From NCBI GenBank assembly GCA_016927655.1, contig JAFGMG010000001.1:34818-98817 (forward strand): DNA of 64,000 bases. The letters run 5' to 3'. The position numbers were made by a program, and so were the translations under genes. The number at the start of each line of letters is the position of its first letter. Position 1 is the first letter of the stretch. The notes under the pieces were generated by a model. It had not been told where the DNA came from, searched no databases, and saw nothing but the letters and a program-made list of their open reading frames with translations. Shown here piece after piece: positions 2,776-61,818 of this stretch. This stretch comes from Candidatus Dojkabacteria bacterium (GTDB taxonomy: Bacteria > Patescibacteriota > Dojkabacteria > B142 > JAFGMG01).

Positions 2776-3713
2776 TTTTTAAGTGAAAATCCAAAATCAG
2801 TTAATATTTCATTTAATTCTTCAAATGACTTGCTTCCCATTCCCCGATAATTCTCAACCTCTTCATAATCTTTTGAATCTAATTCATTTAGTGTAGCAAT
2901 TCCGGCATTCATCAAAGAATTTGTCAATCTTGTGGACATACTGACCTCGCTGATTTTTATTTTCTCTCCATCTTCCTCTTTTGTACTCTCTTTGCTCATT
3001 GAGGCAACCTCATCGGAATCTCCTCCAAAAATATTCACCAATTTATTTGCGATCATGTCATAAATTTCCGCTGCTTCCAGGAGAACTTCGGCTGGAGTTT
3101 TTACTTTGTTCGTAGTGATATTTAGATTTATCAAATCATAGTCAGTTCTTTGTCCAACTCGAGCTTGTGCAATCTGATACTCAACCCTCACAACAGGATT
3201 AAAGTTCGCATCAATTGGTAAATTCCCGATTTCTTTTCTAATGCTCTCATCAGGATATGCATATCCGATACCCCTTTTTATCCTTATTTCCGCATCAATT
3301 TTGCTTGCAGCTCCTGATAAAGTTGTAATAACAAGATCCTTATTTACAATCTCCACATCAGCATTTGGCTCGATGTCTTTAGCTGTAATTTCGACTACGT
3401 CACCTTTTTTGCCTTTCTTACTTAGCTTCAATACTACGTCATCTTGAGTATGTGAAACTATGGCGAGCTCTTTGATATTTAGTAAAATAGCCAAAACGTC
3501 ATCCTGGACTCCTTCTAAAGAACTATACTCATGATCTACTCCGTTTAGCTTTACTCCAACAACTGCTGCGCCCTCGATTGAAGAAAGAAGTATTCTTCTT
3601 AAAGAATTTGCGACTGTATGTCCGAATCCTTTTGGCAATGGACCGATTTCATATTCACCATGTTCCCCGTCTTCTTTTATTTTCTTTAGTTTAAATTTGT
3701 CAATTTCCAGCAT
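2772..3713 (-). CDS. rpoA: DNA-directed RNA polymerase alpha subunit
   Basis: 313 aa. Has the N-terminal dimerisation domain pattern (GHTVANSLRRILLSS) and lies between S4 and L17 as in the conserved alpha operon. Confidence 0.9.
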   Translation of the reverse strand: MLEIDKFKLKKIKEDGEHGEYEIGPLPKGFGHTVANSLRRILLSSIEGAAVVGVKLNGVDHEYSSLEGVQDDVLAILLNIKELAIVSHTQDDVVLKLSKKGKKGDVVEITAKDIEPNADVEIVNKDLVITTLSGAASKIDAEIRIKRGIGYAYPDESIRKEIGNLPIDANFNPVVRVEYQIAQARVGQRTDYDLINLNITTNKVKTPAEVLLEAAEIYDMIANKLVNIFGGDSDEVASMSKESTKEEDGEKIKISEVSMSTRLTNSLMNAGIATLNELDSKDYEEVENYRGMGSKSFEELNEILTDFGFSLKK

Positions 3714-3754
3714 TTGAATTGAAGTAATAATTAAATCTCAATATTAAATAGTTA

Positions 3755-4378: not shown

Positions 4379-4831
4379 CTATTTCTTTGGACTCTTCCTT
4401 GATACTGTCCCTCCATGTTTTACCGGTGTGTAATCAGAAAGTGAGGTAATTTTCAATCCTCCCGATCTAATGCCTTTTACAGCAGCCTGCCTGCCCATTC
4501 CCATACCAGACACAACGACAATCGCTTCTTTTGCTCCGTGTTTAGCTGCTTTAGCAACTGCATCTTCAGCAGCTTTCGTGGCTGCAAACGCAGTACTTTT
4601 TTTCGAACCGGTAAATCCGATTAAACCACCGCTGCTGCTCGCAAGAACGTTCCCATCATAATCAGTTATCGTAACGATGGTGTTGTTGTATCCGCTTTTT
4701 ATTTTAACTTTAACCTTCTGTACATTCTTTTTCTTCGTTTTTTTTGTCGCAACAGGCGCTTTTGCCACCTTCGCTGCTTTGCCCGCCTTTTCAACTTTTA
4801 CATCTTTAGTTTTTTCAGTATTTTTTGCCAT
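4379..4831 (-). CDS. rpsK: 30S ribosomal protein S11 with a Lys/Ala-rich N-terminal extension
   Basis: Core S11 motifs (IVTITDYDGNVLASSSGG...GSKKST). C-terminus is TPVKHGG. Confidence 0.9.
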   Translation of the reverse strand: MAKNTEKTKDVKVEKAGKAAKVAKAPVATKKTKKKNVQKVKVKIKSGYNNTIVTITDYDGNVLASSSGGLIGFTGSKKSTAFAATKAAEDAVAKAAKHGAKEAIVVVSGMGMGRQAAVKGIRSGGLKITSLSDYTPVKHGGTVSRKSPKK

Positions 4832-22267: not shown

Positions 22268-22903
22268 ATGCTCAACAAATACAAATTCATTCTTTTCGAC
22301 TTTGACGACACTCTCGTAAACACGCGCGAGCATATTTGGGCACATCACAAATATGTCGCAAAAGAATTTTACGAAATTGAACTCACAGATGAAAAACTAA
22401 AGGAACACTACGGAGAGCCAATGGAGGAACTCGTTTTGAATCTTTATGAGCGTAAAGATACCGCCGAGAATATGCTGACTAATTACACTAAAAGCAGAGA
22501 CCAATTCCCAAAGACAGTTTATCCAGATACAATTCCTACATTAAATAATCTTTTCGCCCTAGACAAACAACTAGGGATCATCACTGCTACTATGAAAGAA
22601 TATCTTGTCTCTGATTTGAAAAAATACCAATTCCCTTATGAAAAATTCTTATTGCTTCAAGGTGCCGACGAGACAGAATTCCACAAGCCAGACGGAAGAG
22701 TTTTTGACTTCGCATTTGAAGAAGCAAATAAGCTAGGGATTTCAAAAGCAGAAATCATCTATATTGGAGATGGACTAAAAGATCTAATGGCTTCTCAGGA
22801 TGCCGGGATTGATTTCATTGGAGTTGCAAAAGGGATGACAACGAAAGAGACTTTTGAAAAAGAGGGTGTGATAGCAATCACCGATCTGAGTGAACTTCTT
22901 TAA
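22268..22903 (+). CDS. HAD-superfamily hydrolase (phosphatase-like)
   Basis: Motif I ILFDFDDTLV, and a late IGDGLKDLMASQDAG matching motif IV. Confidence 0.7.
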   Translation: MLNKYKFILFDFDDTLVNTREHIWAHHKYVAKEFYEIELTDEKLKEHYGEPMEELVLNLYERKDTAENMLTNYTKSRDQFPKTVYPDTIPTLNNLFALDKQLGIITATMKEYLVSDLKKYQFPYEKFLLLQGADETEFHKPDGRVFDFAFEEANKLGISKAEIIYIGDGLKDLMASQDAGIDFIGVAKGMTTKETFEKEGVIAITDLSELL

Positions 22904-23252
22904 CAAAATAGCGGAATTCACAGTCAGGCTCGTTGTATGCGGGGTCTAGTCTTATTCGGGAAAATCTATCAACGACTACTTCCTCACCACAATGAGGTCT
23001 CTCAATTACCCAAAAATCCTCCTCCTCCGGGATTCCTTCCCAGAAAATCCCTGCATGCTCATAGCTGCATTCAGTTGTAACCACATAAATCACAATTCCA
23101 TTCTGCATGCGCATTGCAACATTTTCCAAATCAATTTCTTCAAATTCATTCAATTCAAGGTATAGACGGACAGTCTCAGGACGATCATTTACGATTGCAT
23201 CTACTAAGCCCATGCAATTTGATCTTGTAGTCTGGAATAATTCAATATCCAT
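22878..23252 (-). CDS. hypothetical protein
   Basis: 124-aa ORF with no recognisable motifs. Ends just before direct-repeat copy 1. Confidence 0.35.
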   Translation of the reverse strand: MDIELFQTTRSNCMGLVDAIVNDRPETVRLYLELNEFEEIDLENVAMRMQNGIVIYVVTTECSYEHAGIFWEGIPEEEDFWVIERPHCGEEVVVDRFSRIRLDPAYNEPDCEFRYFVKEVHSDR

Positions 23253-23286
23253 TTATCAAATTATACAGGAAATTCGTCTTGATGAG

Positions 23287-23314
23287 CCTACTCGGACAAA
23301 AGTCGTACCAGATT
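23287..23314 (+). repeat. direct repeat copy 1 (cctactcggacaaaagtcgtaccagatt)
   Basis: One of four near-identical ~30-bp direct repeats read from the sequence. Confidence 0.7.
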
Positions 23315-23342
23315 ATGAAAGCGATAAAATACTTGAATAAAC

Positions 23343-23612
23343 TTATTTATCTAGATTATCGACAAACTTTTTAAGTCTTGTGGAAAGGAGCTCATTTTCA
23401 CCGTCACCGAAATACAATTCCAGAATAATTCTCAAATCCATCAATTCTTTGTCAAAATGTTTATATCTAATATCTGTTTTAGGAATGTCAGTAGCCTTTA
23501 AATAATTGTCTTTTTCTAAGCACTCTCGTAGATGGTCCAGCAAAGCTAATTTACAAAAGTATTTGTTACTCCATTTCCCGTTAAGTAGAGTTTTGAATTG
23601 TTTCTGTTTCAT
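23343..23612 (-). CDS. hypothetical protein (cassette gene)
   Basis: 89-aa ORF lying between repeat copies 1 and 2. Confidence 0.35.
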   Translation of the reverse strand: MKQKQFKTLLNGKWSNKYFCKLALLDHLRECLEKDNYLKATDIPKTDIRYKHFDKELMDLRIILELYFGDGENELLSTRLKKFVDNLDK

Positions 23613-23693
23613 CTATAAAGTATAAAAAGTAATACTGGGCGAATTATAACAAAATTGGCAGGATAGTGGATATTGTTATTGGGTAGGTATTAT

Positions 23694-23726
23694 GACCCTA
23701 GTGGGACAAAAGTCAAACCAGATTTT
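23694..23726 (+). repeat. direct repeat copy 2 (gaccctagtgggacaaaagtcaaaccagatttt)
   Basis: Same repeat family and same orientation. Confidence 0.7.
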
Positions 23727-23784
23727 AATTGGTTTGAAGTGTTTTAAAAAGTTCACAGTTCAGGGTGAACTATGAACTTTTCTG

Positions 23785-23793
23785 TGGTACAAT
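23785..23793 (+). promoter_or_regulatory. extended -10 element TGgTACAAT. The ATG lies 7 nt downstream, consistent with a leaderless transcript
   Basis: Read from the sequence immediately upstream of the 23800 ORF. Confidence 0.4.
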
Positions 23794-23799
23794 AGATCC

Positions 23800-24771
23800 A
23801 TGAAAACATCGGAAAAAATACTAAAATTTATTGAAGAAGAAGGGGAAGCGACACCAAAACAAATCACGACCTACTCCGGTACGACAAATAGGGCTGTATT
23901 TAAACAGCTTGCAAAAATGACAGAGGCAGGGAAATTGATCAAAATAGGTAAACCTCCCAAAGTATTCTATAAGATTAGTATTGAAAAGGATAAAACAGAG
24001 AAAGCTATAAAACTCGACCAAGCTATAGAAAAAGAGATCGAACAGAATTTTCTTTATGTTACACCTTTGGGAGAATATTTTTCTGGTAAAAAGGGTTTTA
24101 TCAAATGGTGCGAGGAAAGGAAACTTAATATAGCACAACAAGCAAAGCAATATTCAAACATGCTTGCAAGAATTTATCGAAGAAAAGATGCTAAGGTGAT
24201 CATTGCAACAGATAAATTTAAAGACACATTTAGTGAAAATTTTCTTAAAGAGGTTTTTTATATTGATTTTTATTCTATCCCGCAGTTTGGGAAGACTAAA
24301 CTTGGACAGCTTTTGCTGTATGCAAAACAAAGCCAAGATAAAAAGAGAATTAAAGAGATTTCAAATATTGTTAGAGATCCTATTGATTATGTGATAAAGA
24401 AATACAAAATTGATGCGATAGGTTATATTCCCCCAACGGTTAGAAGAGAAGTTCAATTTATGAAAGAGCTTGAGAAGAATCTCAATCTACCTCTACCCCA
24501 AATCAAACTAACAAAAATTAAAACTGAGATTATAGTACCTCAAAAGACTTTGAATAAGATTAGAGATAGAATTACCAATGCTAAGAATACTATTATGGTT
24601 GAAGATAAGAGATCGTTTAACAATGTCTTGCTTATTGATGACGCTGCTGGTTCTGGTGCCTCACTTAACGAAACAGCAAAAAAATTACTGAATAGTGGTA
24701 TAGCGAATAAGGTTTATGGGTTGACTATAACAGGCAGCTACAAGGGTTTTGATGTGATTTCTGAAATCTGA
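23800..24771 (+). CDS. winged-helix HTH + phosphoribosyltransferase (PRTase) domain fusion protein
   Basis: N-terminal wHTH-like segment. C-terminal type I PRTase PRPP-binding motif (VLLIDDAAGSGASL). The TGA stop abuts repeat copy 3. Confidence 0.5.
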   Translation: MKTSEKILKFIEEEGEATPKQITTYSGTTNRAVFKQLAKMTEAGKLIKIGKPPKVFYKISIEKDKTEKAIKLDQAIEKEIEQNFLYVTPLGEYFSGKKGFIKWCEERKLNIAQQAKQYSNMLARIYRRKDAKVIIATDKFKDTFSENFLKEVFYIDFYSIPQFGKTKLGQLLLYAKQSQDKKRIKEISNIVRDPIDYVIKKYKIDAIGYIPPTVRREVQFMKELEKNLNLPLPQIKLTKIKTEIIVPQKTLNKIRDRITNAKNTIMVEDKRSFNNVLLIDDAAGSGASLNETAKKLLNSGIANKVYGLTITGSYKGFDVISEI

Positions 24772-24800
24772 CCCTACTCGGACAAAAGTCAAACCAGCTT
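24770..24800 (+). repeat. direct repeat copy 3 (gaccctactcggacaaaagtcaaaccagctt)
   Basis: Same repeat family and same orientation. Confidence 0.7.
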
Positions 24801-24808
24801 CTAAGATG

Positions 24809-25443
24809 GCTCAATTCAGTATCTCAAACTCCAACAACTCTGGGAAATGCTCCTCTATCTGCTCATTGGTTATAGCCTCTAAGTCAAGATCTGTATTTCT
24901 TGAGATTATTTCTTCTAGTCTCTTGGCATTTTTTCGATGTTCTTTAAAGTCTTCCTCTGGAGAACGACTCTTTAAATCCTCGAGTCTTTCAGAAATAGAT
25001 AAAATGCCATTTAATCCAATTCTTATATCACTATAAACGACAATAATAGATCCGATATTTGACTCTTCTATAATATTAGGAATGAACTGCCATTCAGTAT
25101 TTTTTACAATTTCAATTATAGATTTGTCGCATCCTATTTCTTGAACGATTCCAATTAAAGCACTATGCTCGTCATCTCCATGTTTTTTAATAGTTTATTT
25201 TTGAAAACTTATTAAATCCTCTATCTGAGCTGGACTCATGCCGAACTTCGATTGTTTCTGTGGATCGAAGGTTATGGGTTTGGCAATATCATGTAGCAAG
25301 GAAGCTGTGATAATTGCAGATTTATTGAGGTCACGACTAATCCAATGGTCAAGAATTATTTGAGACAAAGCTCCAACTCTTAGCATGTGAGTGACAAGTG
25401 CCGAAGGAGTCTGATATCTTTTATAAACTTCATTTATTGTCAT
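24809..25443 (-). pseudogene. HD-domain phosphohydrolase gene interrupted by an in-frame TAA
   Basis: The 82-aa ORF 25195..25443 carries the HD motif (LLHDIAK) and ends at a TAA. The same frame then continues for ~128 more codons with no Met, down to ~24809. Confidence 0.5.
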
Positions 25444-25511
25444 ATTTCGATCTTAGAGGATTATCGACACGAAAGCAATATTCGGAGAATAGCTGATAGT
25501 AAGGCAAGATG

Positions 25512-25540
25512 GCCCTACTCGGACAAAAGTTAAACCAGAT
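25512..25540 (+). repeat. direct repeat copy 4 (gccctactcggacaaaagttaaaccagat)
   Basis: Same repeat family and same orientation. Confidence 0.7.
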
Positions 25541-25593
25541 AATCAAAACGTTAGATAATGTAATAATATTGGGCAGTCTATACACGACAAAAA

Positions 25594-25602
25594 TGGTATA
25601 AT
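25594..25602 (+). promoter_or_regulatory. extended -10 element TGgTATAAT. The ATG lies 6 nt downstream (leaderless)
   Basis: Read from the sequence upstream of the 25608 ORF. Confidence 0.45.
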
Positions 25603-25607
25603 GTGTT

Positions 25608-25871
25608 ATGGAAAAAAGACTAGAACAACTTATAAAAAAAAATAGAGAAATATTTTGGGATGTGCCTTCTGGAAGCCTAAACCAACTCTCACAAGAAGCC
25701 ATTTTTGAACGCATATTAGAATTTGGAAATATAGAGTCTTTTGAAGAATTAACTGAAGCAACCAAAGGAAATACCGCACAAATTTTTAACAGGCTAATCA
25801 ATAAAAAACGTGTAAACCTATCTCCAAGAATAATAAATTTTATGAATACTTATCTTGAATACAATTCATAG
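25608..25871 (+). CDS. small protein upstream of and overlapping the AbiEii-like gene. Possible cognate antitoxin or regulator
   Basis: 87 aa. Overlaps the downstream toxin-like gene by 17 nt. Leaderless-type promoter. Confidence 0.3.
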   Translation: MEKRLEQLIKKNREIFWDVPSGSLNQLSQEAIFERILEFGNIESFEELTEATKGNTAQIFNRLINKKRVNLSPRIINFMNTYLEYNS

Positions 25872-26466
25872 AGAGGTTTTAAATAAGAAACAGCTAGAGT
25901 TATGGCCACTTCTCCCGCAGTTTAAAGATTTCTATTTGGCTGGAGGAACATCATTAGCATTACAAATTGGACACAGAAAATCTATTGACTTTGATCTTTT
26001 TCATAATGCTCCAATCAATACAGAAGAAATACTAAAATTGCTTGATAAAAATAGAATTAGTAATGTTATTGTGGATACTCAAGATGAGTTCACATTGATT
26101 TACAATCAAATGAAGCTAACATTCTTAAATTATCCTTTTAACGTCAAGACCAACGTTAAGCTTGAAAATATCGAATCAATAGATCCTTTGACTATCGCTG
26201 CAATGAAAGCCTATGCTCTTGGAAGAAGGGCCAAATGGAAGGATTATGTAGACTTGTACTTTGTTTCCAGGAAATACTCTTTGGATCATATTATCGACAG
26301 AGCTAAGAATATTTTTGATAATCTTTTTTCAGAAAAATTATTTCGTACACAACTTTGCTATTTTGATGACGTGGATTATACAGAGAAAGTAGAATACACT
26401 GAAGGACATGAGGTTACAGATAAAAAGATCAAAGAGCACTTGAAGAAAGTTTCCACGGATTTATGA
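25855..26466 (+). CDS. AbiEii-like nucleotidyltransferase (type IV toxin-antitoxin toxin family, DUF1814-like)
   Basis: LAGGTSLALQIGHRKSIDFDLF matches the GGTAL...R.S.D.D motif of AbiEii/DUF1814 nucleotidyltransferases. Confidence 0.5.
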   Translation: MNTIHREVLNKKQLELWPLLPQFKDFYLAGGTSLALQIGHRKSIDFDLFHNAPINTEEILKLLDKNRISNVIVDTQDEFTLIYNQMKLTFLNYPFNVKTNVKLENIESIDPLTIAAMKAYALGRRAKWKDYVDLYFVSRKYSLDHIIDRAKNIFDNLFSEKLFRTQLCYFDDVDYTEKVEYTEGHEVTDKKIKEHLKKVSTDL

Positions 26467-26535
26467 CCCTACCGGGAATCGAACCCGGATTTACAGATTG
26501 AGAATCTGCTGTCCTAACCGTTAGACGATAGGGCC
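26464..26535 (-). tRNA. tRNA-Glu (anticodon CUC)
   Basis: Hand-folded cloverleaf: acceptor GGCCCUA/UAGGGUC, D-arm GUCU-AACGGUUA-GGAC, anticodon stem GCAGA/UCUGU with loop UUCUCAA, T-arm CCGGG-UUCGAUU-CCCGG, discriminator A. Confidence 0.7.
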
Positions 26536-26575
26536 GAAGCGTTTGATTTGTCCTTACGATTATATCAAAAGGAGA

Positions 26576-27595
26576 CTACTTCTCAAACACATAAAGCGGC
26601 ACCTCTTCAAGCCATTTGTCTTTCCAGCCGTTATTCACCGCCAGGAAATCCATTTTCTCAAAGCCTCCTGCAAGTGCATCTTCAATTTCATAAAGATTCA
26701 AGAAGTTCCCAATGCCTGGACAATTATCCACGTCATAACCGCATTTGATCGGAGCATAAATCTTATTATAAAGAAGAATTAGATCAACCCCCATTATTTC
26801 CCCATCAATTTCCACACTAAGCATCCTGATATCGTAAGAATCGTGAATTTTACCAAGCTCGACAACGTTCCTGAAAGCCTCAATCTGACGAGGATCCTCC
26901 CAGTCAGCAAGCTGCCCCTTTTCTTTCAGTCTGGCTTTACTCAGCCTGATCAAATGATCTAAATCTTCAAATCTATCACGAACCACAACAGGATTCCTGG
27001 ATTCAATAACTCTTCTATCACGCTTCATGTTATAACGTCTCTTCTTTTTCAAATTGTTCAGGACCGAATCCAGGGTATTGTATTTTTTCAAATCAAGAAT
27101 ATATTTCGAATCATCTTTTTTGAACCTTTCTGGATTTGCGCTTTTTTTGACAGTTTCGCTTGAAATAGAGCCTAAATGCAGCGGAGCAGGTGCCAGATCC
27201 AAAAGTAGATCAACAAGCGTGTCATCCTTAACCAGAATTTTTGTTTCTTCCTGCCACCAGCTGCCAAACCAGATAAACCTGTTGTTATCAGCTTCAAACC
27301 ATAAGGGGAATAATCCGACATTTGCATCCTGCTTAGAAATCGCAACGAAATACGGAACACGGCCGAATCCCTTCCAAAAAGCATATCGAAATTCCCATGT
27401 ATCGAAAATTGTTTTGAAGCTTGAGAATTCCTTCCACAACACTTTGCAAGAGTCAATATCACTTACTATTTTTACTTCATATCCTTTCGCTTTGAGTTCA
27501 GTTAAAGTTTTTTGGTTTAATTTTTCTATTCCTAAACTAGGAGGCTCATCACTTGAAGTAGTTTCATTTGAAGCACCAGAAATGGCACTTATCAT
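26576..27595 (-). CDS. acyl-CoA N-acyltransferase-fold protein (FemAB / CelD-BcsL-like)
   Basis: 339 aa. The only support is a weak family-level resemblance. Confidence 0.3.
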   Translation of the reverse strand: MISAISGASNETTSSDEPPSLGIEKLNQKTLTELKAKGYEVKIVSDIDSCKVLWKEFSSFKTIFDTWEFRYAFWKGFGRVPYFVAISKQDANVGLFPLWFEADNNRFIWFGSWWQEETKILVKDDTLVDLLLDLAPAPLHLGSISSETVKKSANPERFKKDDSKYILDLKKYNTLDSVLNNLKKKRRYNMKRDRRVIESRNPVVVRDRFEDLDHLIRLSKARLKEKGQLADWEDPRQIEAFRNVVELGKIHDSYDIRMLSVEIDGEIMGVDLILLYNKIYAPIKCGYDVDNCPGIGNFLNLYEIEDALAGGFEKMDFLAVNNGWKDKWLEEVPLYVFEK

Positions 27596-54778: not shown

Positions 54779-54853
54779 GGTGGTTGTAGCTCAATTGGTT
54801 AGAGCACCGGTTTGTGGTACCGGGGGTTGTGGGTTCAAGTCCCATCTACCACC
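54779..54853 (+). tRNA. tRNA-His (anticodon GUG) with G-1 and discriminator C. CCA is encoded immediately 3' (to 54856)
   Basis: Hand-folded: G-1, acceptor GUGGUUG/CUACCAC (one mismatch), UA, D-arm GCUC-AAUUGGUUA-GAGC, anticodon stem CCGGU/ACCGG with loop UUGUGGU, T-arm GUGGG-UUCAAGU-CCCAU. Confidence 0.8.
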
Positions 54854-56305
54854 CCATACTGTACTATCTTCCAAATTTGCAAGTAGATTGAACGGTTCTA
54901 AGTAGTCGTAGTGCAGTTTTTTGCCATCCCATGTAACGTTCTGAAGTACAGTCTTGATTAAAAGCTGAGCTTCATGAGGTTCCGAACGTTTAAATAACTC
55001 TGCACTATGCTTAGCCAGCTCTACAATAAGGTTTGCGGTCACATAGAAGGCTCTATCGACCTTTTGTACATTGGTTAATTTCCTTTCTATTTCGTCTAGT
55101 TGAGATTGATACTGTTTGTTCTTTTTTTCATACAATTCATTAGTAATACTTTCATCATATTTATCATCTAGTAGTTTTAGCATTCTATTATTAATAGCCT
55201 CTCTTTCTGAAACCAGATGTTTTATCAGGTCTTTTGAAATACCGTAGCTAGTCTCATTTAAATCTCTTAGGTCTTTGAGTACTTTTTCTGCAGTATTTTT
55301 ATCAAGTTGGATATTCTTAAAAGCTTTGGCAAATTGGTTCTTAAGAATTTCCTCACTTACATATTGAGCTCCATGCTTTCCTCCGTATTGTGTACATCTG
55401 TAATAGTTTTTCCCTCTTTGTTCTTCTGGGCTTAATGTATAACCGCAGACAGAGCATTTTATTAATGTTCTATAATGGAACTCCTTGCCCCTATATTTTT
55501 CTTTTCCATCCCATTTTGTTCGTCCTTCTTTAATATCTTGTACTTGATTAAATAAGTGTTCAGATACTATCGTTTCGTAGATATGTGGATACTCAAGATT
55601 TTTCTTTTTGTAGGTTGCAATGCCTATATAAAACTTATCTCCAAGTATTCTACCTATCATGGATTTACCAAGTTTTATATTATAGTCTTCAAGTATTTTT
55701 GCTGATAGTTGGCTCATTGAGTAAGTTTGTGTTGCGTATAATTCATATAGCTTTGCAACAACAATAGCCTCAATAGGTACTACTTTAACTGTCTTAATGC
55801 CTTTATCTGCATCAATAGTTATATTTTTATATCCAAATGGAGCTTTAGTAAGTATTTCTCCACTTTTTACTTTTACATCTATTTTCCTTTTTACATTGTC
55901 ACTTATAGCATCCGAATAATATTGAGCGAGTAATGCCCCAAGGTTAAATTTGAATTTCTCTGTAGCATATGAGTTCTTATCAATAATCAAGTTTTCAGAT
56001 GAAAAATGTAGTACAACTTTATCATCGTCTAATAGCCTTTGTATAGGGACTATGTGCATGAAATTTCTTAGTAGTCTGTCTACCTTATCGACTACCAATG
56101 CCACTTTCTCTTTTTGTGACTCAACATGCTTAATTACTGCATCAAACTTTTCTCTTTGAGTTTTATAAGCTGATTCGTGGAAGTCAAAAACATCTTGTTC
56201 AGAATATGTGAAGTTCACTTTTTCAGCATAGTCCTTCAACTTCAACAGCTGACCATCTGTTTCTTGTTCGTCTGTTGATACTCTAGCTAAAAGAATTGCT
56301 TTCAT
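54791..56305 (-). CDS. large serine recombinase (resolvase/invertase catalytic domain + recombinase domain + zinc ribbon)
   Basis: N-terminal ILLARVSTDEQ (catalytic Ser) and VDRLLRN. C-terminal CSVCGY...YYRCTQY zinc ribbon. The last ~25 codons of the ORF are antisense to tRNA-His. Confidence 0.8.
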   Translation of the reverse strand: MKAILLARVSTDEQETDGQLLKLKDYAEKVNFTYSEQDVFDFHESAYKTQREKFDAVIKHVESQKEKVALVVDKVDRLLRNFMHIVPIQRLLDDDKVVLHFSSENLIIDKNSYATEKFKFNLGALLAQYYSDAISDNVKRKIDVKVKSGEILTKAPFGYKNITIDADKGIKTVKVVPIEAIVVAKLYELYATQTYSMSQLSAKILEDYNIKLGKSMIGRILGDKFYIGIATYKKKNLEYPHIYETIVSEHLFNQVQDIKEGRTKWDGKEKYRGKEFHYRTLIKCSVCGYTLSPEEQRGKNYYRCTQYGGKHGAQYVSEEILKNQFAKAFKNIQLDKNTAEKVLKDLRDLNETSYGISKDLIKHLVSEREAINNRMLKLLDDKYDESITNELYEKKNKQYQSQLDEIERKLTNVQKVDRAFYVTANLIVELAKHSAELFKRSEPHEAQLLIKTVLQNVTWDGKKLHYDYLEPFNLLANLEDSTVWGGRWDLNPQPPVPQTGALTN

Positions 56306-56310
56306 GTTTG

Positions 56311-57261
56311 TTAATAATTTGATCCATAAGTCTTATTTGTTAGTTCTGCCATAGTCTTCGAATTCAGGATATCTTCCAACTTGTAGTATCTAGGACCATA
56401 GAGAGCTAATTGAGGGGTATCACCTAAGATTACAGGATTCTCAAGTTTTTGAATGTTTCCATCATGATGAATAATGTACTTTCCTGGTTTACCTTCAAAT
56501 GGCTCAATTTTGGTAATTTTTGCATAATATCTAATACTACTGATTGGGGCGGCTTCGTAAAGTGCAACGTATTTTAATTTATCAATATTTGATTGACCTA
56601 TCCTTACAGCCCACCAAGCATTTTTCTCTTCGAAAGCCTTTATTCTTCCCTCTCCTTTACATGGTCCTACGATTGTATCGTAAACTCTCTCAGCATTTGT
56701 CTGATGCTCTTTTACTGGCTTTTCTTCTATTGCTACATCACCTTCATCTTTAAGTGGCTCAAAAAGGTTAAAGCCCAAAGTAGAAACGAGTAGTTCAACG
56801 TCATCAAAGAAATCTAGAATTGTTTCCTGTTTAAATTCATGAAGGTTGTTTTGGTTTGGATTTGTCCTATTTTGCACTTCAAATCTTCCTATTTCGATTG
56901 CCTTCATTACTGCATATGATTCAAGGAACTTAACATCTGCTTTATCTAGGCTTCCATTCGAAGATACTACTACTACTGCCCATTGCCAAAAATCTTTATT
57001 GACCTCGTGATTTTTTATTCGGTGGATAAAATTTTCACACTCTCCGATGTAAACACTTGTTCTTTCATCATCAAATAACATATACAAAGCAGGAGATGTA
57101 AGGTCTTGTCTTGTATTTGCAAAACTAATTTGATTCCTTGGGATTACATAGACTTTAGCTGTACTAACAGATAATTCAGCGATTTTCACTCCATTAGGAT
57201 CAGAGTCTTTAAGAAAAATCTGTATTGTTTTTGCTCGTGCCATGTTTATTTTATTAATCAA
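56311..57261 (-). CDS. GIY-YIG (T5orf172-like) nuclease domain protein with a C-terminal domain of unknown function
   Basis: ALYMLFDDERTSVYIGECENFIHRIKNH fits the GIY...YIG...N...R...H pattern. Confidence 0.45.
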   Translation of the reverse strand: MINKINMARAKTIQIFLKDSDPNGVKIAELSVSTAKVYVIPRNQISFANTRQDLTSPALYMLFDDERTSVYIGECENFIHRIKNHEVNKDFWQWAVVVVSSNGSLDKADVKFLESYAVMKAIEIGRFEVQNRTNPNQNNLHEFKQETILDFFDDVELLVSTLGFNLFEPLKDEGDVAIEEKPVKEHQTNAERVYDTIVGPCKGEGRIKAFEEKNAWWAVRIGQSNIDKLKYVALYEAAPISSIRYYAKITKIEPFEGKPGKYIIHHDGNIQKLENPVILGDTPQLALYGPRYYKLEDILNSKTMAELTNKTYGSNY

Positions 57262-57262
57262 A

Positions 57263-59149
57263 TTATGCTACCCAAAGGTTTTGACCAAATATACTCTTTA
57301 GATTCCACTTCTTTGTAGTGTCTACAGCCCGCTCTAAGCATATAAATCGCATGTCTTTCATGCCTTCCAGTATCTTTAGTGTTGAATTACTTATCGTGTC
57401 GTCTAGACACACTAGAGCTTCTTTCTCACCATCTGAAATCTTCCATATTTTGTTTTCTTTTATCTCTTCAATTAGTTCTTTATTGAAAGTAAGTTTGAAT
57501 CCATCTTTTAGAGCGATTTCATAAAGTAACTCTTCTTCTTCAAATTCAAACTTCATTTGAGACTTTGCTTTTTCTAAGTACTCCTCAAAAGCTTTCATAT
57601 TCTCATCTTCTGATTTCTCAGGATCAGGTGTAAATTGATTTTCAGGGAAGAAGCTAGGAGCCAATTTGAATACTTTAAATCCCAAATCGAGATTTTTACC
57701 ATCTTTGAGTAGTTTCCCTTCGTCTTCTTTCTTAATTTTTTCCGAAACTCTTTTAACTCTTTCAATACAGATATCTGATATTGTTTTATATCCTGCTTTG
57801 TACGCTTCACTCTTTTCATCTGTAAGTTCAGGAAGTTGTACTAGTATGTATTTTCTATTCCCACCATCTTCTTTATTTAGTTCCATTACTGCATGAGCAG
57901 TAGTTCCTGAGCCTGCAAAGAAGTCTAGAATTATATCGTCATTTTTACCATCAGAGGAAAGTTTTAATAGGTGCGATAATAGCTGGACTGGTTTGGTATA
58001 GTTGAAATAGTTATAGTTAAATATACTAAGAAAATCTAATGTAGCTGATTGTGTACTTCCTGCAATTGAGTGATCTAAAAATGAACGAGGTACGACCTTC
58101 TCCGCTTCACTAAGAAATTGCTTTTTTCTTGGGGATTTACTATTCCCGTCACTTCCCCAATAAAGCAAATTGTCCTCTAAATGCTTTTGATGTGTTTCTT
58201 TTGAATAGGCCCATACTGCAGTCTCACGTGGCCATATTTCCTCTCCTGTATTTGGATTTATAATAGGATAATACAAATTTGGTCTCTCATTTTTATTCTT
58301 ATTGCATGTATATGCAGCAGAATTCCAAGCACCTCGAGGATCATTATCGGGATTGGAATAATATGAGTTTTGTTTCGCTGTTCTTTCAAGTCGTTGTGGA
58401 TACCAGCTGTTTTTATCCTTTCCATAAACAAGTAAGTATTCATGATCACTGCTAAACCATTTTGAATCGTTTGCTGGAGAAACCCTTTTTTTCCAAACGA
58501 GCATAGCTACAAAATTTTCCTCTCCAAACACCTCATCCGTTATCTTTCTCAAATTATGGACTTCATTGTCATCAATACTCACGAATATAACTCCGTCATC
58601 TTTTAGAAGTTCTCTTGCTAAAACAAGCCTTGGATACATCATGTTTAGCCAATTGCTATGGTATCTACCTTGTGTTTCTGTGTTTGTATCTATCTTTACT
58701 CCATTTTCTGTAGTTCCACTCTTTTCCCAATATGCTTTTTTATCTTCTGAATAGTTATCTGAATATACAAAATCATTTCCAGTATTGTATGGAGGATCAA
58801 TATAAATACATTTAATCTTTCCTGAATATGACTTTTGTAAGAGCTTTAGAACCTCTAGATTGTCTCCTTCTATTATCATATTGTCTGTACTCTCAAACTC
58901 TATACTTCGCTCCTTGTCAGGCGTTAGATTCGCTCTGCTAGGCTTGTAGGCATTCCTTTTAGCAGATATTTTACCTGCCCAATTAAATTCATATTTACCT
59001 GTTGCAAGACTTGGATAGTTTTTACTCAAAAGTTCAAGCTCTTTGATGTCTAAAACCCCGTCTTCATTGAATAATTGAGGCATAGCACTTTGGAGTGCTT
59101 TAAGCTTTTCTTCTTGTAAATCGAGTGACTGTTTGTTGATTTTGTTCAT
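57263..59149 (-). CDS. mod: Type III restriction-modification methyltransferase (Mod). Beta-class N6-adenine / N4-cytosine MTase
   Basis: Motif IV YIDPPYNTGNDF near the N-terminus, motif I FFAGSGTTAHA near the C-terminus (beta permutation), and a central variable region. Confidence 0.75.
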   Translation of the reverse strand: MNKINKQSLDLQEEKLKALQSAMPQLFNEDGVLDIKELELLSKNYPSLATGKYEFNWAGKISAKRNAYKPSRANLTPDKERSIEFESTDNMIIEGDNLEVLKLLQKSYSGKIKCIYIDPPYNTGNDFVYSDNYSEDKKAYWEKSGTTENGVKIDTNTETQGRYHSNWLNMMYPRLVLARELLKDDGVIFVSIDDNEVHNLRKITDEVFGEENFVAMLVWKKRVSPANDSKWFSSDHEYLLVYGKDKNSWYPQRLERTAKQNSYYSNPDNDPRGAWNSAAYTCNKNKNERPNLYYPIINPNTGEEIWPRETAVWAYSKETHQKHLEDNLLYWGSDGNSKSPRKKQFLSEAEKVVPRSFLDHSIAGSTQSATLDFLSIFNYNYFNYTKPVQLLSHLLKLSSDGKNDDIILDFFAGSGTTAHAVMELNKEDGGNRKYILVQLPELTDEKSEAYKAGYKTISDICIERVKRVSEKIKKEDEGKLLKDGKNLDLGFKVFKLAPSFFPENQFTPDPEKSEDENMKAFEEYLEKAKSQMKFEFEEEELLYEIALKDGFKLTFNKELIEEIKENKIWKISDGEKEALVCLDDTISNSTLKILEGMKDMRFICLERAVDTTKKWNLKSIFGQNLWVA

Positions 59150-59151
59150 AT

Positions 59152-61818
59152 TTAGAAAATATTAAGATTAAGTTTGTTATTCGCCTTTGATTTAAAATCA
59201 GTAAAGCTTTCTACAGGTGCTAAGTACTCTTTTAGTCCAATAGCTTCAAAGTGTTTAATAGCACATTGTATTTTCATCTTCTCTGTTTCCTTTAGTTGAT
59301 TCCATTCTGTAGAACCTTTTGTTTCTATTACAAAGTAGTACTTTGTTGATTCTCCATCTTCAAGCGAGGTCTTTTCTAAAACAAGTGCAAAATCTGGATT
59401 GTATTTGCCAATTGGAGTATCGATCTCATACCATTTGGGAAGTTTTATAAATGCTTTGACCTTATTTTCATTATCAACTCCAAGTGTGAAGTCTTTCTCA
59501 ATATCTGAGTCGTAAATCACACCATCGTATAAGCCATTTTTAACTGGAACAATTTCACCGTATGTTTCGATAATTTCTTGAAAGAGCGAAGTATCGTAGC
59601 TATAGCCTAAGGTCTGATAATTCACTAGATTTACCATTTCATCTTCAAGTATGTGCTGAATCCTTTTAACTGCCTCTGCTACATAGATAATTGGATTTTT
59701 GTTAAGCATATGTTTATTATTTAACCCTTCAAATATCTGAATAACTGTATTTACACTTAGTGCAGTTTGTTCGGATATTTCATCTACAAAATCTATACTC
59801 ACAACTGATACCTTTGAAACAGCTTCATCACTTCCTACATGTCTTGAGCTTTCTGTAATGCCTACATCTTCAGATAGAGATTGAATTTTGTTAAGCTCTG
59901 AAATGATAGTTTGTTCTTGTACTACTATCTCGTTAAGTGATTCGATACATTTATCTACTAGCTCAGGTTCTCTAAATACAACAGAGTATTTAGTTTTTTG
60001 AGATATTTTCTTCCATAAGTTTTTAAAGTCATCACCTCCTAGAACTGATTTATTAAGCTTAATTTTATTGAGGTTCTTTCTGGCATCTCTTGGTTTTGGT
60101 AGAGGTGATTTAGTACCAAATTCTTCGATAAGTTCGCTTTGATAACTTTCAGCAAAAGAATAATAGCTTTGATTTGCAACAACCGTTAGTAAATTCACTT
60201 CTTGACCTTCTGAAATGTCTTCTGCATCTCTGTATCGCTTACCATCTTGCATAACTGATATTCTCAAACCTCTTCCTATCTCTTGCCTTTTCTTGATCGT
60301 ACTTTCGGATTCATTTAGTGTACAGATGTTAAACACATTCGGATTATCCCATCCAACGCCTAAAGCAGAGTGAGAGAATATAAATTCAAGTGGCTCATCA
60401 AATGAAAGCAATCTCTCTTTATCTTTCATAATAAGGTTGAATATCTCACTGTTTTTTGTCATTGAGTTCTCATTATCTGTATACTCTCCTGTTGATTTTG
60501 TCTTTGCAAAATAACCGTTATGAACTTTAGCTATATCATCAGGCTCAACTCCATATTTATTCTTGAACTCTTCTTGATAGATTTCTACAAATAACTTTCT
60601 AATAATTCCGTCTACTTCAACATAGTTAGCAACTCTATCAATGAAAAACAGTGATAAGACTTTAATGTCCTTTTCTTTATAAATTTCTTTTTTCTGGAAA
60701 TGTTTTTTAATCGTCCATCTTATTTGTTCTCTAAAAATTCCTTCTTTGTCCCACCCAATTTTATTCCCTTTAGTAAGTTCTGTTCCGTTAGAGAATCTAA
60801 CTTTTTCAGTACCATCTAGAGGATCAATCAAAATTCTACTAATTACCCAACCTCTGTATACAGGGTTCTTAGTTTTTTCTTCCAAATTATCACCATCTTT
60901 AAAATACATAGATTTAGTCCGAAGTTGATTTCCAAAGCTCACATTTAGCTTGGCCTCAGGCGGTTTTCCAGTATTTGAAGTTCGGAGTCCTTCGAACATA
61001 ATCTGTACATTACTCTGCATATTACTCTCATGAATTGAGAATACTTCTATCTTTTTAACCAAACCTTGATTATATGCATCATAAGGTGTTAATCGATAAA
61101 CCAGGTTAATTTGCTTTTTGTGTGTAGCAGAGTATCTTAATTTGAATAGAGGATTGAGTCCTGCAAATCTTTTCTTCATATTAGCTGAATCCATGCCCTC
61201 TTGTGGCTCATCCATTATGATAATAGGATTTGTTTGCTTGATTAGGTCAATGAGTTTAACTCCTTGGTTTGAATCTCTTTCTTGATTGATAATCCTGTCA
61301 TCCGTATTGAATGCTTGTACATTAGTAACCATGATTTGAAGTGTATTTCCAGTTGCAAAGTTTCTAACTCTTACAGGCTTTTTACTGTCGTATTCAAAGT
61401 AGTCTGCTTTTGTGTTGTAGAGCTGTTTAAAGTGTTGTTCTGTCATTTTAAGTGTTTTTATAACACCCTCTTTGACAGGAATACTTGGGACAACAATAAT
61501 AAACTTGTTTAATCCATATTCTTTGTGAAGCTCTAGAATTGTCCTTAGATAAACATAGGTTTTACCTGTACCTGTTTCCATTTCAATTGAGAAATCTAGT
61601 GTATCTTTATCTAAAAATGTTTCTAAAATTGAATTTTCTGTAGTAATTTGATTGAAGTTTTCAAATACCTTTTCAGGAGTGATTTTTAATACATTTTTTG
61701 AGACCTCACTGAATACTCTATTTTCAGCTTTAATGTAGGGTGCTCCATCAAAGAGCTTAACTACTGAGTTAATAGCATCTATTTGGTACTGTAAGTTTGG
61801 TTCAAATTGTATTTTCAT
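59152..61818 (-). CDS. res: Type III restriction endonuclease Res subunit (SF2 helicase-like ATPase + nuclease)
   Basis: Walker A METGTGKTY, DEAH-like box IIIMDEPQ, ~890 aa. Sits immediately upstream of and co-oriented with mod. Confidence 0.7.
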   Translation of the reverse strand: MKIQFEPNLQYQIDAINSVVKLFDGAPYIKAENRVFSEVSKNVLKITPEKVFENFNQITTENSILETFLDKDTLDFSIEMETGTGKTYVYLRTILELHKEYGLNKFIIVVPSIPVKEGVIKTLKMTEQHFKQLYNTKADYFEYDSKKPVRVRNFATGNTLQIMVTNVQAFNTDDRIINQERDSNQGVKLIDLIKQTNPIIIMDEPQEGMDSANMKKRFAGLNPLFKLRYSATHKKQINLVYRLTPYDAYNQGLVKKIEVFSIHESNMQSNVQIMFEGLRTSNTGKPPEAKLNVSFGNQLRTKSMYFKDGDNLEEKTKNPVYRGWVISRILIDPLDGTEKVRFSNGTELTKGNKIGWDKEGIFREQIRWTIKKHFQKKEIYKEKDIKVLSLFFIDRVANYVEVDGIIRKLFVEIYQEEFKNKYGVEPDDIAKVHNGYFAKTKSTGEYTDNENSMTKNSEIFNLIMKDKERLLSFDEPLEFIFSHSALGVGWDNPNVFNICTLNESESTIKKRQEIGRGLRISVMQDGKRYRDAEDISEGQEVNLLTVVANQSYYSFAESYQSELIEEFGTKSPLPKPRDARKNLNKIKLNKSVLGGDDFKNLWKKISQKTKYSVVFREPELVDKCIESLNEIVVQEQTIISELNKIQSLSEDVGITESSRHVGSDEAVSKVSVVSIDFVDEISEQTALSVNTVIQIFEGLNNKHMLNKNPIIYVAEAVKRIQHILEDEMVNLVNYQTLGYSYDTSLFQEIIETYGEIVPVKNGLYDGVIYDSDIEKDFTLGVDNENKVKAFIKLPKWYEIDTPIGKYNPDFALVLEKTSLEDGESTKYYFVIETKGSTEWNQLKETEKMKIQCAIKHFEAIGLKEYLAPVESFTDFKSKANNKLNLNIF

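Follow-up and report, generated by a model that had tools for sequence, protein, structure and literature searches.

A small DUF6922-like protein is the conserved partner of a short AbiEii-family nucleotidyltransferase in a candidate toxin–antitoxin module from Candidatus Dojkabacteria

A 64,000-nucleotide stretch of contig JAFGMG010000001.1 (hereafter the window, whose first letter is position 1), from a metagenome-assembled genome (MAG) of Candidatus Dojkabacteria, a lineage of the candidate phyla radiation (CPR)/Patescibacteria, contains two overlapping genes on the + strand beside a tRNA-Glu gene. The upstream gene (25608..25871, ATG start) encodes a protein of 87 amino acids (aa) and is a putative antitoxin gene; the downstream gene (25855..26466, TTG start) encodes a 203-aa nucleotidyltransferase (NTase) of the DUF1814/AbiEii family. 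We consider it fairly probable that together they constitute a self-contained, horizontally mobile toxin–antitoxin (TA) module that pairs a tRNA-targeting DUF1814 toxin with a helical cognate antitoxin. At the core of this proposal is the observation that the small gene is a genuine, non-canonical partner that forms a conserved unit with the toxin gene in distantly related bacteria.

Each of the two genes is present once in the window. A listing of open reading frames (ORFs) confirms the protein sizes and the 17-nt overlap (25855..25871, +) reported in a first-pass annotation of this DNA, which had been made from the sequence alone. In the NCBI record the larger protein appears as 'nucleotidyl transferase AbiEii/AbiGii toxin family protein [Candidatus Dojkabacteria bacterium]' and the smaller one as 'hypothetical protein'. 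A chance reading frame can be dismissed for both ORFs, since the toxin has at least 7,885 relatives in the database (counted as 90%-identity clusters) and homologues of the small gene lie upstream of nearly all toxin genes in the loci described below.

The 203-aa protein is an intact AbiEii/DUF1814 nucleotidyltransferase

Three lines of evidence, namely a Pfam score that exceeds the gathering threshold, intact motifs and a matching fold, show that the 203-aa protein is a bona fide AbiEii/DUF1814 NTase. It aligns with the Pfam AbiEii model (PF08843) at 48 bits (E = 2e-12), where the gathering cut-off is 22.5. The first-pass annotation had assigned the protein to this family on the strength of the peptide LAGGTSLALQIGHRKSIDFDLF, which corresponds to residues 28–49, and had made the assignment depend on a significant profile match; the search thus bears the assignment out. 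PF08843 is also the precomputed assignment of all 120 toxin homologues listed. Nearly all of these best 120 relatives are 199–211 aa long (two are 238–239 aa), and the closest one other than the protein itself is 67% identical (E = 8e-90). A scan of the 203-aa protein against NCBIfam returned no match.

The N-terminal part of the protein contains the Pol-beta signature hG[GS]-x9-13-Dh[DE]h, in the form of G30-G31-T32 followed, after 12 residues, by D45-F46-D47-L48. The catalytic motifs of this part (G30-G31-T32, R41-K42-S43 and D45-F-D47) are encoded at 25942..25995 (+), and in an alignment of 32 diverse homologues T32, H40, R41, S43, D45 and D47 are invariant, while G30, G31 and G39 are nearly so. 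Further along, at 26206..26253 (+), the gene encodes K118-AYALG-R125-AKW-K129-D130-YV-D133, which conforms to the DUF1814-specific C-terminal motif (K..A...R...[RK]D..D) reportedly defined by Dy and colleagues in 2014. K118, L122, G123, R125, K127, W128, K129, D130, Y131 and D133 are invariant in the same alignment. A motif IV unique to DUF1814 proteins has been described (PMC10435456).

An AlphaFold2 model of the toxin (pLDDT 95, pTM 0.90) was compared with solved structures using Foldseek. The top 12 matches in the PDB are JHP933, MenT4, MenT1 and MenT3/TglT (probability 1.00, TMq 0.40–0.63), with JHP933 as the best match (E = 1e-5) and MenT4 reaching a TMq of 0.63. Identity between the window toxin and these solved DUF1814 structures is 13–20% in structural alignments. 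Within the AbiEii/MenT superfamily, the window toxin is a deeply divergent representative of minimal size; it is intact and not truncated.

The 87-aa protein belongs to an extended DUF6922-like family

In view of profile comparisons, the 87-aa protein is most aptly regarded as a divergent representative of an extended DUF6922 family. A sub-threshold match to the Pfam DUF6922 model (PF21956) covers residues 13–49, and the same domain was found in 21 of 35 orthologous partners (E ≤ 0.01, the best being 6e-13). We built a partner-family profile from small genes extracted upstream of toxin homologues, and in hhalign this profile aligned with an HTH_3–DUF6922 protein with 82% probability (E = 1e-5). 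The partner family has an additional conserved C-terminal half (residues ~50–87) that lies outside the 52-position Pfam DUF6922 model. This half includes a conserved loop at residues 65–72 (KKRVNLSP), in which N70 is invariant. The partner profile retrieves at least 1,064 proteins among 90% clusters and at least 545 representatives among 50% clusters (E ≤ 1e-10 for 323 of these). Nearly all of the matches are 84–130 aa long, and the few that are named at the source are called 'hypothetical protein' with one exception. When the 87-aa protein alone was used as the query, a word-indexed homology search recovered nothing but the protein itself.

The AlphaFold2 model of the 87-aa protein (pLDDT 92.8) consists of seven helices. 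The winged helix-turn-helix (wHTH) for which the first-pass annotation had proposed inspecting the predicted structure is absent from it, and the Pfam, PADLOC and NCBIfam models of AbiEi do not match the protein. Its identity as AbiEi is thereby ruled out, in agreement with the earlier remark that the partner is not a canonical AbiEi. A search for a solved structural relative of the seven-helix bundle found none; MenA1 and other solved antitoxins were rejected as relatives because they match neither in sequence nor in structure. We also rejected the idea that the small protein is the detached N-terminal domain of a long AbiEii, since the start of the Pfam AbiEii model already falls near residue 11 of the toxin (profile position 9 aligns with residue 20) and since the rare fusions observed, which are decayed copies, join the small domain to the C-terminal half of the toxin. 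On Aquifex plasmid ece1, the 82-aa partner of a 206-aa AbiEii protein shows no detectable similarity to the DUF6922-like family, and small partners of short AbiEii proteins are therefore not all of one family.

The two genes form a conserved unit across phyla

To compare gene order, we assembled 90 loci from other genomes, which comprise 80 genome loci from a toxin-profile search and the contigs of exact-protein look-ups. The look-ups covered six proteins: the window's own toxin and five other homologues, which occur in ten places, eight of them with DNA available. An 84–89-aa gene overlaps the toxin start in all five of these homologues. Over the whole set, a homologue of the small protein (84–95 aa) is encoded directly upstream of the toxin and on the same strand in 89 of the 90 loci, and in the single exception the toxin lies at a contig edge. 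Homology among the upstream ORFs is evident from phmmer (E down to 1e-24) and jackhmmer (94 matches). The small gene and the toxin gene typically overlap by 8–17 nt, most commonly by 8 nt, and the 17-nt overlap of the window recurs identically in three other loci (L002, L003 and L011) that encode the P0004 toxin, which is 61% identical.

The two proteins also diverge together. Pairwise distances between partners and between toxins are correlated across 85 distinct pairs (r = 0.755), a value that none of 2,000 permutations reached in a Mantel test. Mean identity in these pairs is 36% for the partner versus 47% for the toxin, and the faster evolution of the partner fits an antitoxin role, as is usual for antitoxins. 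The first-pass annotation had described the small gene as either a minimal or novel antitoxin or part of a degraded module. The first of these descriptions stands and the second does not, given that a partner of 84–95 aa and the same overlap are conserved across phyla and that the partner co-evolves with the toxin.

Some relatives of the small protein carry a DNA-binding domain. On the Phocaeicola vulgatus plasmid pPvulCL10_1, a short AbiEii-family gene is immediately preceded, and overlapped, by a gene for a 171-aa protein (the pair WP_117926422.1 and WP_117926424.1) that begins with an XRE helix-turn-helix (HTH; HTH_3) and ends with a DUF6922 domain (E = 4e-21); it is with this C-terminal part that the partner-family profile aligns in hhalign. 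This arrangement resembles that of the window, whose partner differs in lacking the HTH; the plasmid toxin is ~32% identical to the window toxin, and both plasmid proteins are annotated generically. Two cluster representatives (P0325 and P0389) likewise combine an XRE HTH with the complete small domain, and another (P0294) combines it with an HTH_17 (MerR-type) domain. Antitoxins classically combine a DNA-binding domain with one that recognizes the toxin; the small domain therefore looks antitoxin-like, and the window's 87-aa protein may represent the recognition domain alone of an HTH-carrying family.

Genomes that encode the module represent at least 559 species. About one-third of the best 80 genomes belong to CPR lineages and about one-third to Bacteroidota; the remainder are labelled Gammaproteobacteria, Bdellovibrionales, Nitrospirae, Kiritimatiellae, Omnitrophota and others. 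Genomic context is not conserved, with 141 nearest neighbour genes spread over 187 Pfam families. The most frequently recurring neighbours are MNT nucleotidyltransferase domains (four members each), and HepT occurs twice, indicating that some neighbours are themselves other TA genes. Modules lie in the trmD–FemAB and pheS–pheT intervals, within a type I restriction-modification (R-M) operon next to an Abi_2 gene, and beside a ParE pair. Several genomes contain two to four tandem copies. Small, adjacent, co-oriented genes that remain paired while being scattered independently of context are what is generally expected of a TA module, and this is the pattern observed here.

A Draconibacterium orientale MAG provides an example of tandem copies in which four paralogous modules of a small protein and a short AbiEii lie within 6.6 kb (L083:1-6609). 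A repeat of ~85 nt follows three of the four toxin genes in this locus.

Many homologous modules share an extended −10 promoter element close to the start codon

Upstream of the small gene, the window contains the extended −10 element TGGTATAAT at 25594..25602 (+), 5 nt before the ATG at 25608, and no Shine–Dalgarno (SD) sequence. Related modules show the same layout. Among 57 distinct homologous modules, 22 (0.55 expected) have a TGnTAnnnT element whose end lies 4–10 nt ahead of the start codon, the commonest spacing between the TAWAAT hexamer and the start codon is 6 nt, and an SD-like sequence is present in only 5 of the 57. The fuller element TGnTATAAT occurs 5–6 nt before the small-gene start in loci from different phyla (the window, L002, L004, L017, L018, L024, L037 and others).

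The operon thus brings a promoter of its own, and with an extended −10 element so near a start codon that lacks an SD its mRNA is probably leaderless; the recurrence of the element points to leaderless operon mRNA as a trait of the family. The toxin TTG is not preceded by an SD either and lies inside the small ORF; the 17-nt overlap therefore probably couples translation of the toxin to translation of the small gene.

Proposed mechanism

Characterized members of the superfamily suggest how the pair could function. MenT1, MenT3, MenT4 and AbiEii add nucleotides, mainly pyrimidines, to the 3′-CCA of tRNA and thereby block aminoacylation, and the mutually unrelated antitoxins, MenA1 on the one hand and the COG5340 proteins MenA3 and AbiEi on the other, bind their toxins and induce autophosphorylation of an active-site serine or threonine (MenT1 T39, MenT3 S78 and AbiEii T65) (PMC7450476; PMC10435456; PMC11375011; bioRxiv 10.64898/2026.01.19.700257). 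By analogy with the family, the window toxin would modify the 3′ end of tRNA, so that aminoacylation is blocked and translation arrested. The 87-aa helical protein would neutralize the toxin by direct protein–protein contact, as the genetics and architecture of the pair suggest. Both proteins would be made from the leaderless transcript initiated at the operon's own extended −10 element, with the toxin translated by coupling. We infer toxicity, the tRNA target and the mode of neutralization, as well as any role in phage defence, from such comparisons.

The most speculative step concerns S43. The segment R41-K42-S43-I44-D45 is invariant in the clade and has an R-x-S-x-D arrangement, and in the toxin model S43 is located on a loop between the helix at 31–38 and the strand at 46–50. 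Judging from this spacing, S43 would occupy a position equivalent to MenT3 R76/S78, AbiEii R63/T65 and MenT1 T39, the last of which precedes D41 by two residues (residue numbers from PMC11375011 and bioRxiv 10.64898/2026.01.19.700257). The phosphoacceptor residues of MenT1, MenT3 and apo-AbiEii are found at the place that corresponds to this loop. The antitoxin might push the invariant S43, within the R41-x-S43-x-D45 loop, toward a bound nucleoside triphosphate and so cause the toxin to phosphorylate itself, in a type VII-like manner. A 2026 preprint moves AbiE to type VII on account of antitoxin-induced autophosphorylation, which renders the type IV label used in the first-pass annotation doubtful even for canonical AbiE (bioRxiv 10.64898/2026.01.19.700257).

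Comparison with known systems

The module would work most like MenAT1 (MenA1–MenT1, Rv0078B–Rv0078A) of Mycobacterium tuberculosis, yet without an antitoxin of the MenA1 family. MenT1 is likewise a minimal DUF1814 toxin of ~190–200 aa, and its structures (8an4/8an5) are among the top fold matches of the window toxin, with 13–16% identity in structural alignment. Both systems have a small upstream antitoxin that lacks a DNA-binding domain (68 aa for MenA1 versus 87 aa here; PMC10435456) and a toxin with a serine or threonine two residues before the first catalytic aspartate (T39-x-D41 in MenT1, S43-x-D45 in the window). In contrast to MenA1, which contacts MenT1 as a single extended helix, the window partner is an unrelated seven-helix bundle. 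The families also differ in size, as MenA1 has ~21 known homologues (PMC10435456), whereas the window partner family comprises at least 545 clusters at 50% identity.

Resemblances to AbiE (Lactococcus and Streptococcus agalactiae), MenAT3/4, RlegTA and SanaTA include a PF08843 toxin, its motifs and the R-x-S/T loop, and AbiE is also a bicistronic operon in which the antitoxin gene comes first. The module is nevertheless not AbiE in the strict sense, because AbiEi belongs to COG5340 and joins a winged HTH at its N terminus to a neutralization domain at its C terminus, and the window partner is not a COG5340 wHTH protein. The window toxin is ~90 aa shorter than AbiEii and MenT3. Autoregulation of the AbiEi type is not expected from a stand-alone partner without a DNA-binding domain. 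From model scores alone, we expect that a PADLOC AbiE rule that needs both genes would miss the pair.

JHP933, from the Helicobacter pylori plasticity zone (PDB 4O8S/4OK0), is the best structural match of the window toxin (TM 0.56–0.58) and resembles it in being a short DUF1814 NTase on a mobile region. The two differ in sequence, with only 17–20% identity, and we know of no DUF6922 partner for JHP933. DUF6922 is not mentioned in the literature that we searched, and literature on AbiEii in combination with Patescibacteria or XRE yielded nothing that describes this pairing.

Alternative explanations

Several observations weigh against the interpretation of the pair as a TA module or against details of it. 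The DUF6922 match of the 87-aa protein (E = 7e-4) scores 19.4 bits, below the 27-bit cut-off, and the protein has a near-neutral pI of 6.3, compared to a family median of 9.4. On the toxin side, PADLOC AbiEii models score the 203-aa protein weakly (best E = 7.6e-5) and a profile of the toxin family finds no PDB chain at E ≤ 1, with one spurious match at E = 7.5; substrate and toxicity are thus extrapolated from characterized toxins that are too distant for sequence searches. To our knowledge, the top fold match JHP933 is not known as a TA toxin and has no demonstrated toxin role. No relatives were confirmed in 2.9 million IMG/VR viral contigs, and the immediate neighbours of modules are mostly housekeeping genes. 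The comparative data lend little support to a role in defence or abortive infection; the copy inside a type I R-M operon is a single case.

These points about JHP933 and the housekeeping neighbours would also suit a non-toxic NTase with a small accessory or specificity subunit, such as an ANT(2″)/KNTase-like modifier of small molecules or antibiotics or a regulatory RNA-modifying enzyme, and not a TA system. Overexpression of MenT2 has proved non-toxic (PMC10435456), and Foldseek also returns ANT(2″)-Ia (TM 0.50–0.57) and TM1012-type NTases for the toxin model, but these matches are weaker (E ≥ 8e-3) than those to DUF1814 proteins (E from 1e-5 to 1e-3). We think such an enzyme unlikely, as the DUF1814-specific C-terminal motif is invariant and as the patchy spread across phyla, the lack of a conserved context, the tandem arrays and the HTH-fused partners are typical of TA modules and unlike metabolic enzymes. 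In type VII HEPN–MNT modules the NTase is the antitoxin, and a reversed polarity of this kind, with the NTase modifying a toxic small helical protein, could be imagined here given that recurring HepT and MNT neighbours show that HEPN–MNT systems coexist in these genomes. This seems very improbable, considering that the characterized members of the DUF1814 clade are all toxins, that the small gene bears three antitoxin hallmarks (it is upstream, faster-evolving and HTH-fused in relatives) and that no catalytic motif or fold is recognizable in the small protein.

A degraded AbiE locus, in which the 87-aa ORF is the remnant of an AbiEi of 200–300 aa and the 203-aa ORF a truncated AbiEii, would account for two proteins shorter than canonical AbiEi and AbiEii, and decay is seen nearby and elsewhere: the HD-domain gene of the adjacent cassette is a pseudogene interrupted by an in-frame TAA, and rare fusions of the small domain to the C-terminal half of the toxin (P0261 and P0371) are decayed copies. 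However, sizes of 84–95 aa and 199–211 aa recur together with the overlap over hundreds of species, both proteins are modelled with high confidence as complete domains, the 87-aa protein is dissimilar to every AbiEi model and all family-invariant residues are present in the 203-aa toxin. Degradation is thus effectively refuted, and an intact TA module remains our preferred interpretation.

The module occupies a repeat-bounded unit at the 3′ end of tRNA-Glu

The gene pair is part of a larger repeat array. A direct repeat of ~31 nt (consensus TGACCCTACTCGGACAAAAGTCAAACCAGAT) is present in four copies, at 23281–23311, 23691–23721, 24767–24797 and 25508–25538, where none would be expected by chance, and splits the DNA that separates a HAD hydrolase gene from tRNA-Glu into four gene-sized units (spacings of 410, 1076, 741 and 953 nt). 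The fourth copy (25508..25538, +; GATGGCCCTACTCGGACAAAAGTTAAACCAGA) forms the left boundary of the module and tRNA-Glu(CTC) (26464..26535, −; ARAGORN, with an Rfam tRNA score of 65.6 bits) its right boundary, so that the pair is bracketed in what the first-pass annotation had rightly called the last cassette.

In a gapped alignment the repeats resemble the 3′ end of the tRNA-Glu gene (26461–26492). For three copies this likeness is reached by 0–4 of 500 shuffles; for the fourth (25508) it is weak, being reached by 23 of 500. Both units with a gene on the + strand have their TGA stop inside the repeat or the tRNA end (24769–24771 and 26464–26466), and the stop of the toxin gene coincides with the final three bases of tRNA-Glu. 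The array has a low GC content (0.33–0.35, against 0.38–0.40 around it) and looks like the product of serial insertion at a tRNA end, or an integron-like array. No recombinase gene is present within the four units, and no known RNA family besides tRNA-Glu was found in 22800–26700. Searches of metagenome and viral contigs gave 0 matches to the full 31-nt repeat and 41 matches to its 18-nt core, all of them single chance occurrences without flanking repeat sequence.

Flanking repeats also occur elsewhere in the family. Locus-specific, imperfect direct repeats of 20–128 nt that duplicate the end of an adjacent gene flank 10 of 83 other modules, with flank-repeat scores of 14–39 versus a control maximum of 13. 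The flanked modules measure ~0.9–1.0 kb and encode no recombinase. In one locus (L071:735-779 and 1716-1760) the flank repeats codons 1–15 of an rpiB-like gene, and in another (L009:3710-3737 and 4618-4645) it repeats the 3′ end of pheS; a further flanking direct-repeat pair is present at L031:2629-2756 and 3607-3734.

The remaining units of the window array contain other genes. A 323-aa protein encoded in its own repeat-bounded unit (23800–24771, +) combines a winged-helix-like region at its N terminus with a phosphoribosyltransferase (PRTase) domain at its C terminus. Its best PADLOC matches are PsyrT (3.6e-15), the retron type III-A PRTase and ShosT, with weak Pfam matches to PRTase-CE and ComF, and it may be a stand-alone PRTase of the defence or toxin type. 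The third unit holds an HD-domain phosphohydrolase gene of ~216 codons (24798–25507, −) in which a single in-frame TAA at 25195–25197 interrupts the reading after codon 82, and which is probably a recent pseudogene. Two small ORFs without a Pfam match are located at the far end of this stretch: an 89-aa ORF (23343–23612, −), which occupies one of the units, and a 124-aa ORF (22878–23252, −), which converges with the HAD hydrolase gene and shares 26 nt with its 3′ end.

A second island of low GC content (0.32–0.35) extends over 54780–61818. It includes tRNA-His (54780..54856, +) and a large serine recombinase gene (Resolvase + Recombinase + Zn_ribbon_recom; 54791..56305, −) whose 3′ end overlaps the tRNA gene. 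The recombinase is followed by a 316-aa unknown protein and then by a type III R-M pair (Mod 57263..59149 and Res 59152..61818).

Discussion

That DUF1814 toxins have diverse antitoxins is already established; what is new here is the partner family and its pairing. A more far-reaching account can be given, which taken as a whole seems to us unlikely. DUF6922-like proteins would be a fourth, structurally new antitoxin family for DUF1814 toxins, predominant in CPR and Bacteroidota and expected to be missed by AbiE models. The ~0.9-kb module would be a recombinase-less mobile cassette with a leaderless promoter that inserts at gene ends and duplicates 20–130 nt of its target. In the window, the 3′ end of tRNA-Glu would have received such insertions repeatedly, giving rise to a four-cassette, integron-like accretion array in which the TA pair is the newest, tRNA-proximal unit and possibly a stabilizing one.

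Few toxin and defence families are as abundant as the DUF1814 toxins, which include AbiEii and MenT, and how unrelated antitoxins control them through induced autophosphorylation is an active research question. The module described here adds a very widespread and unstudied partner family to this question. Because PADLOC AbiEi models miss the partner and AbiEii models score the toxin weakly, defence and TA censuses probably count too few such pairs, most of all in CPR/Patescibacteria and Bacteroidota. The existence of stand-alone and HTH-fused partners amounts to a natural experiment that separates toxin neutralization from autoregulation, and the target duplications that flank some modules offer a handle on the movement of small TA modules.

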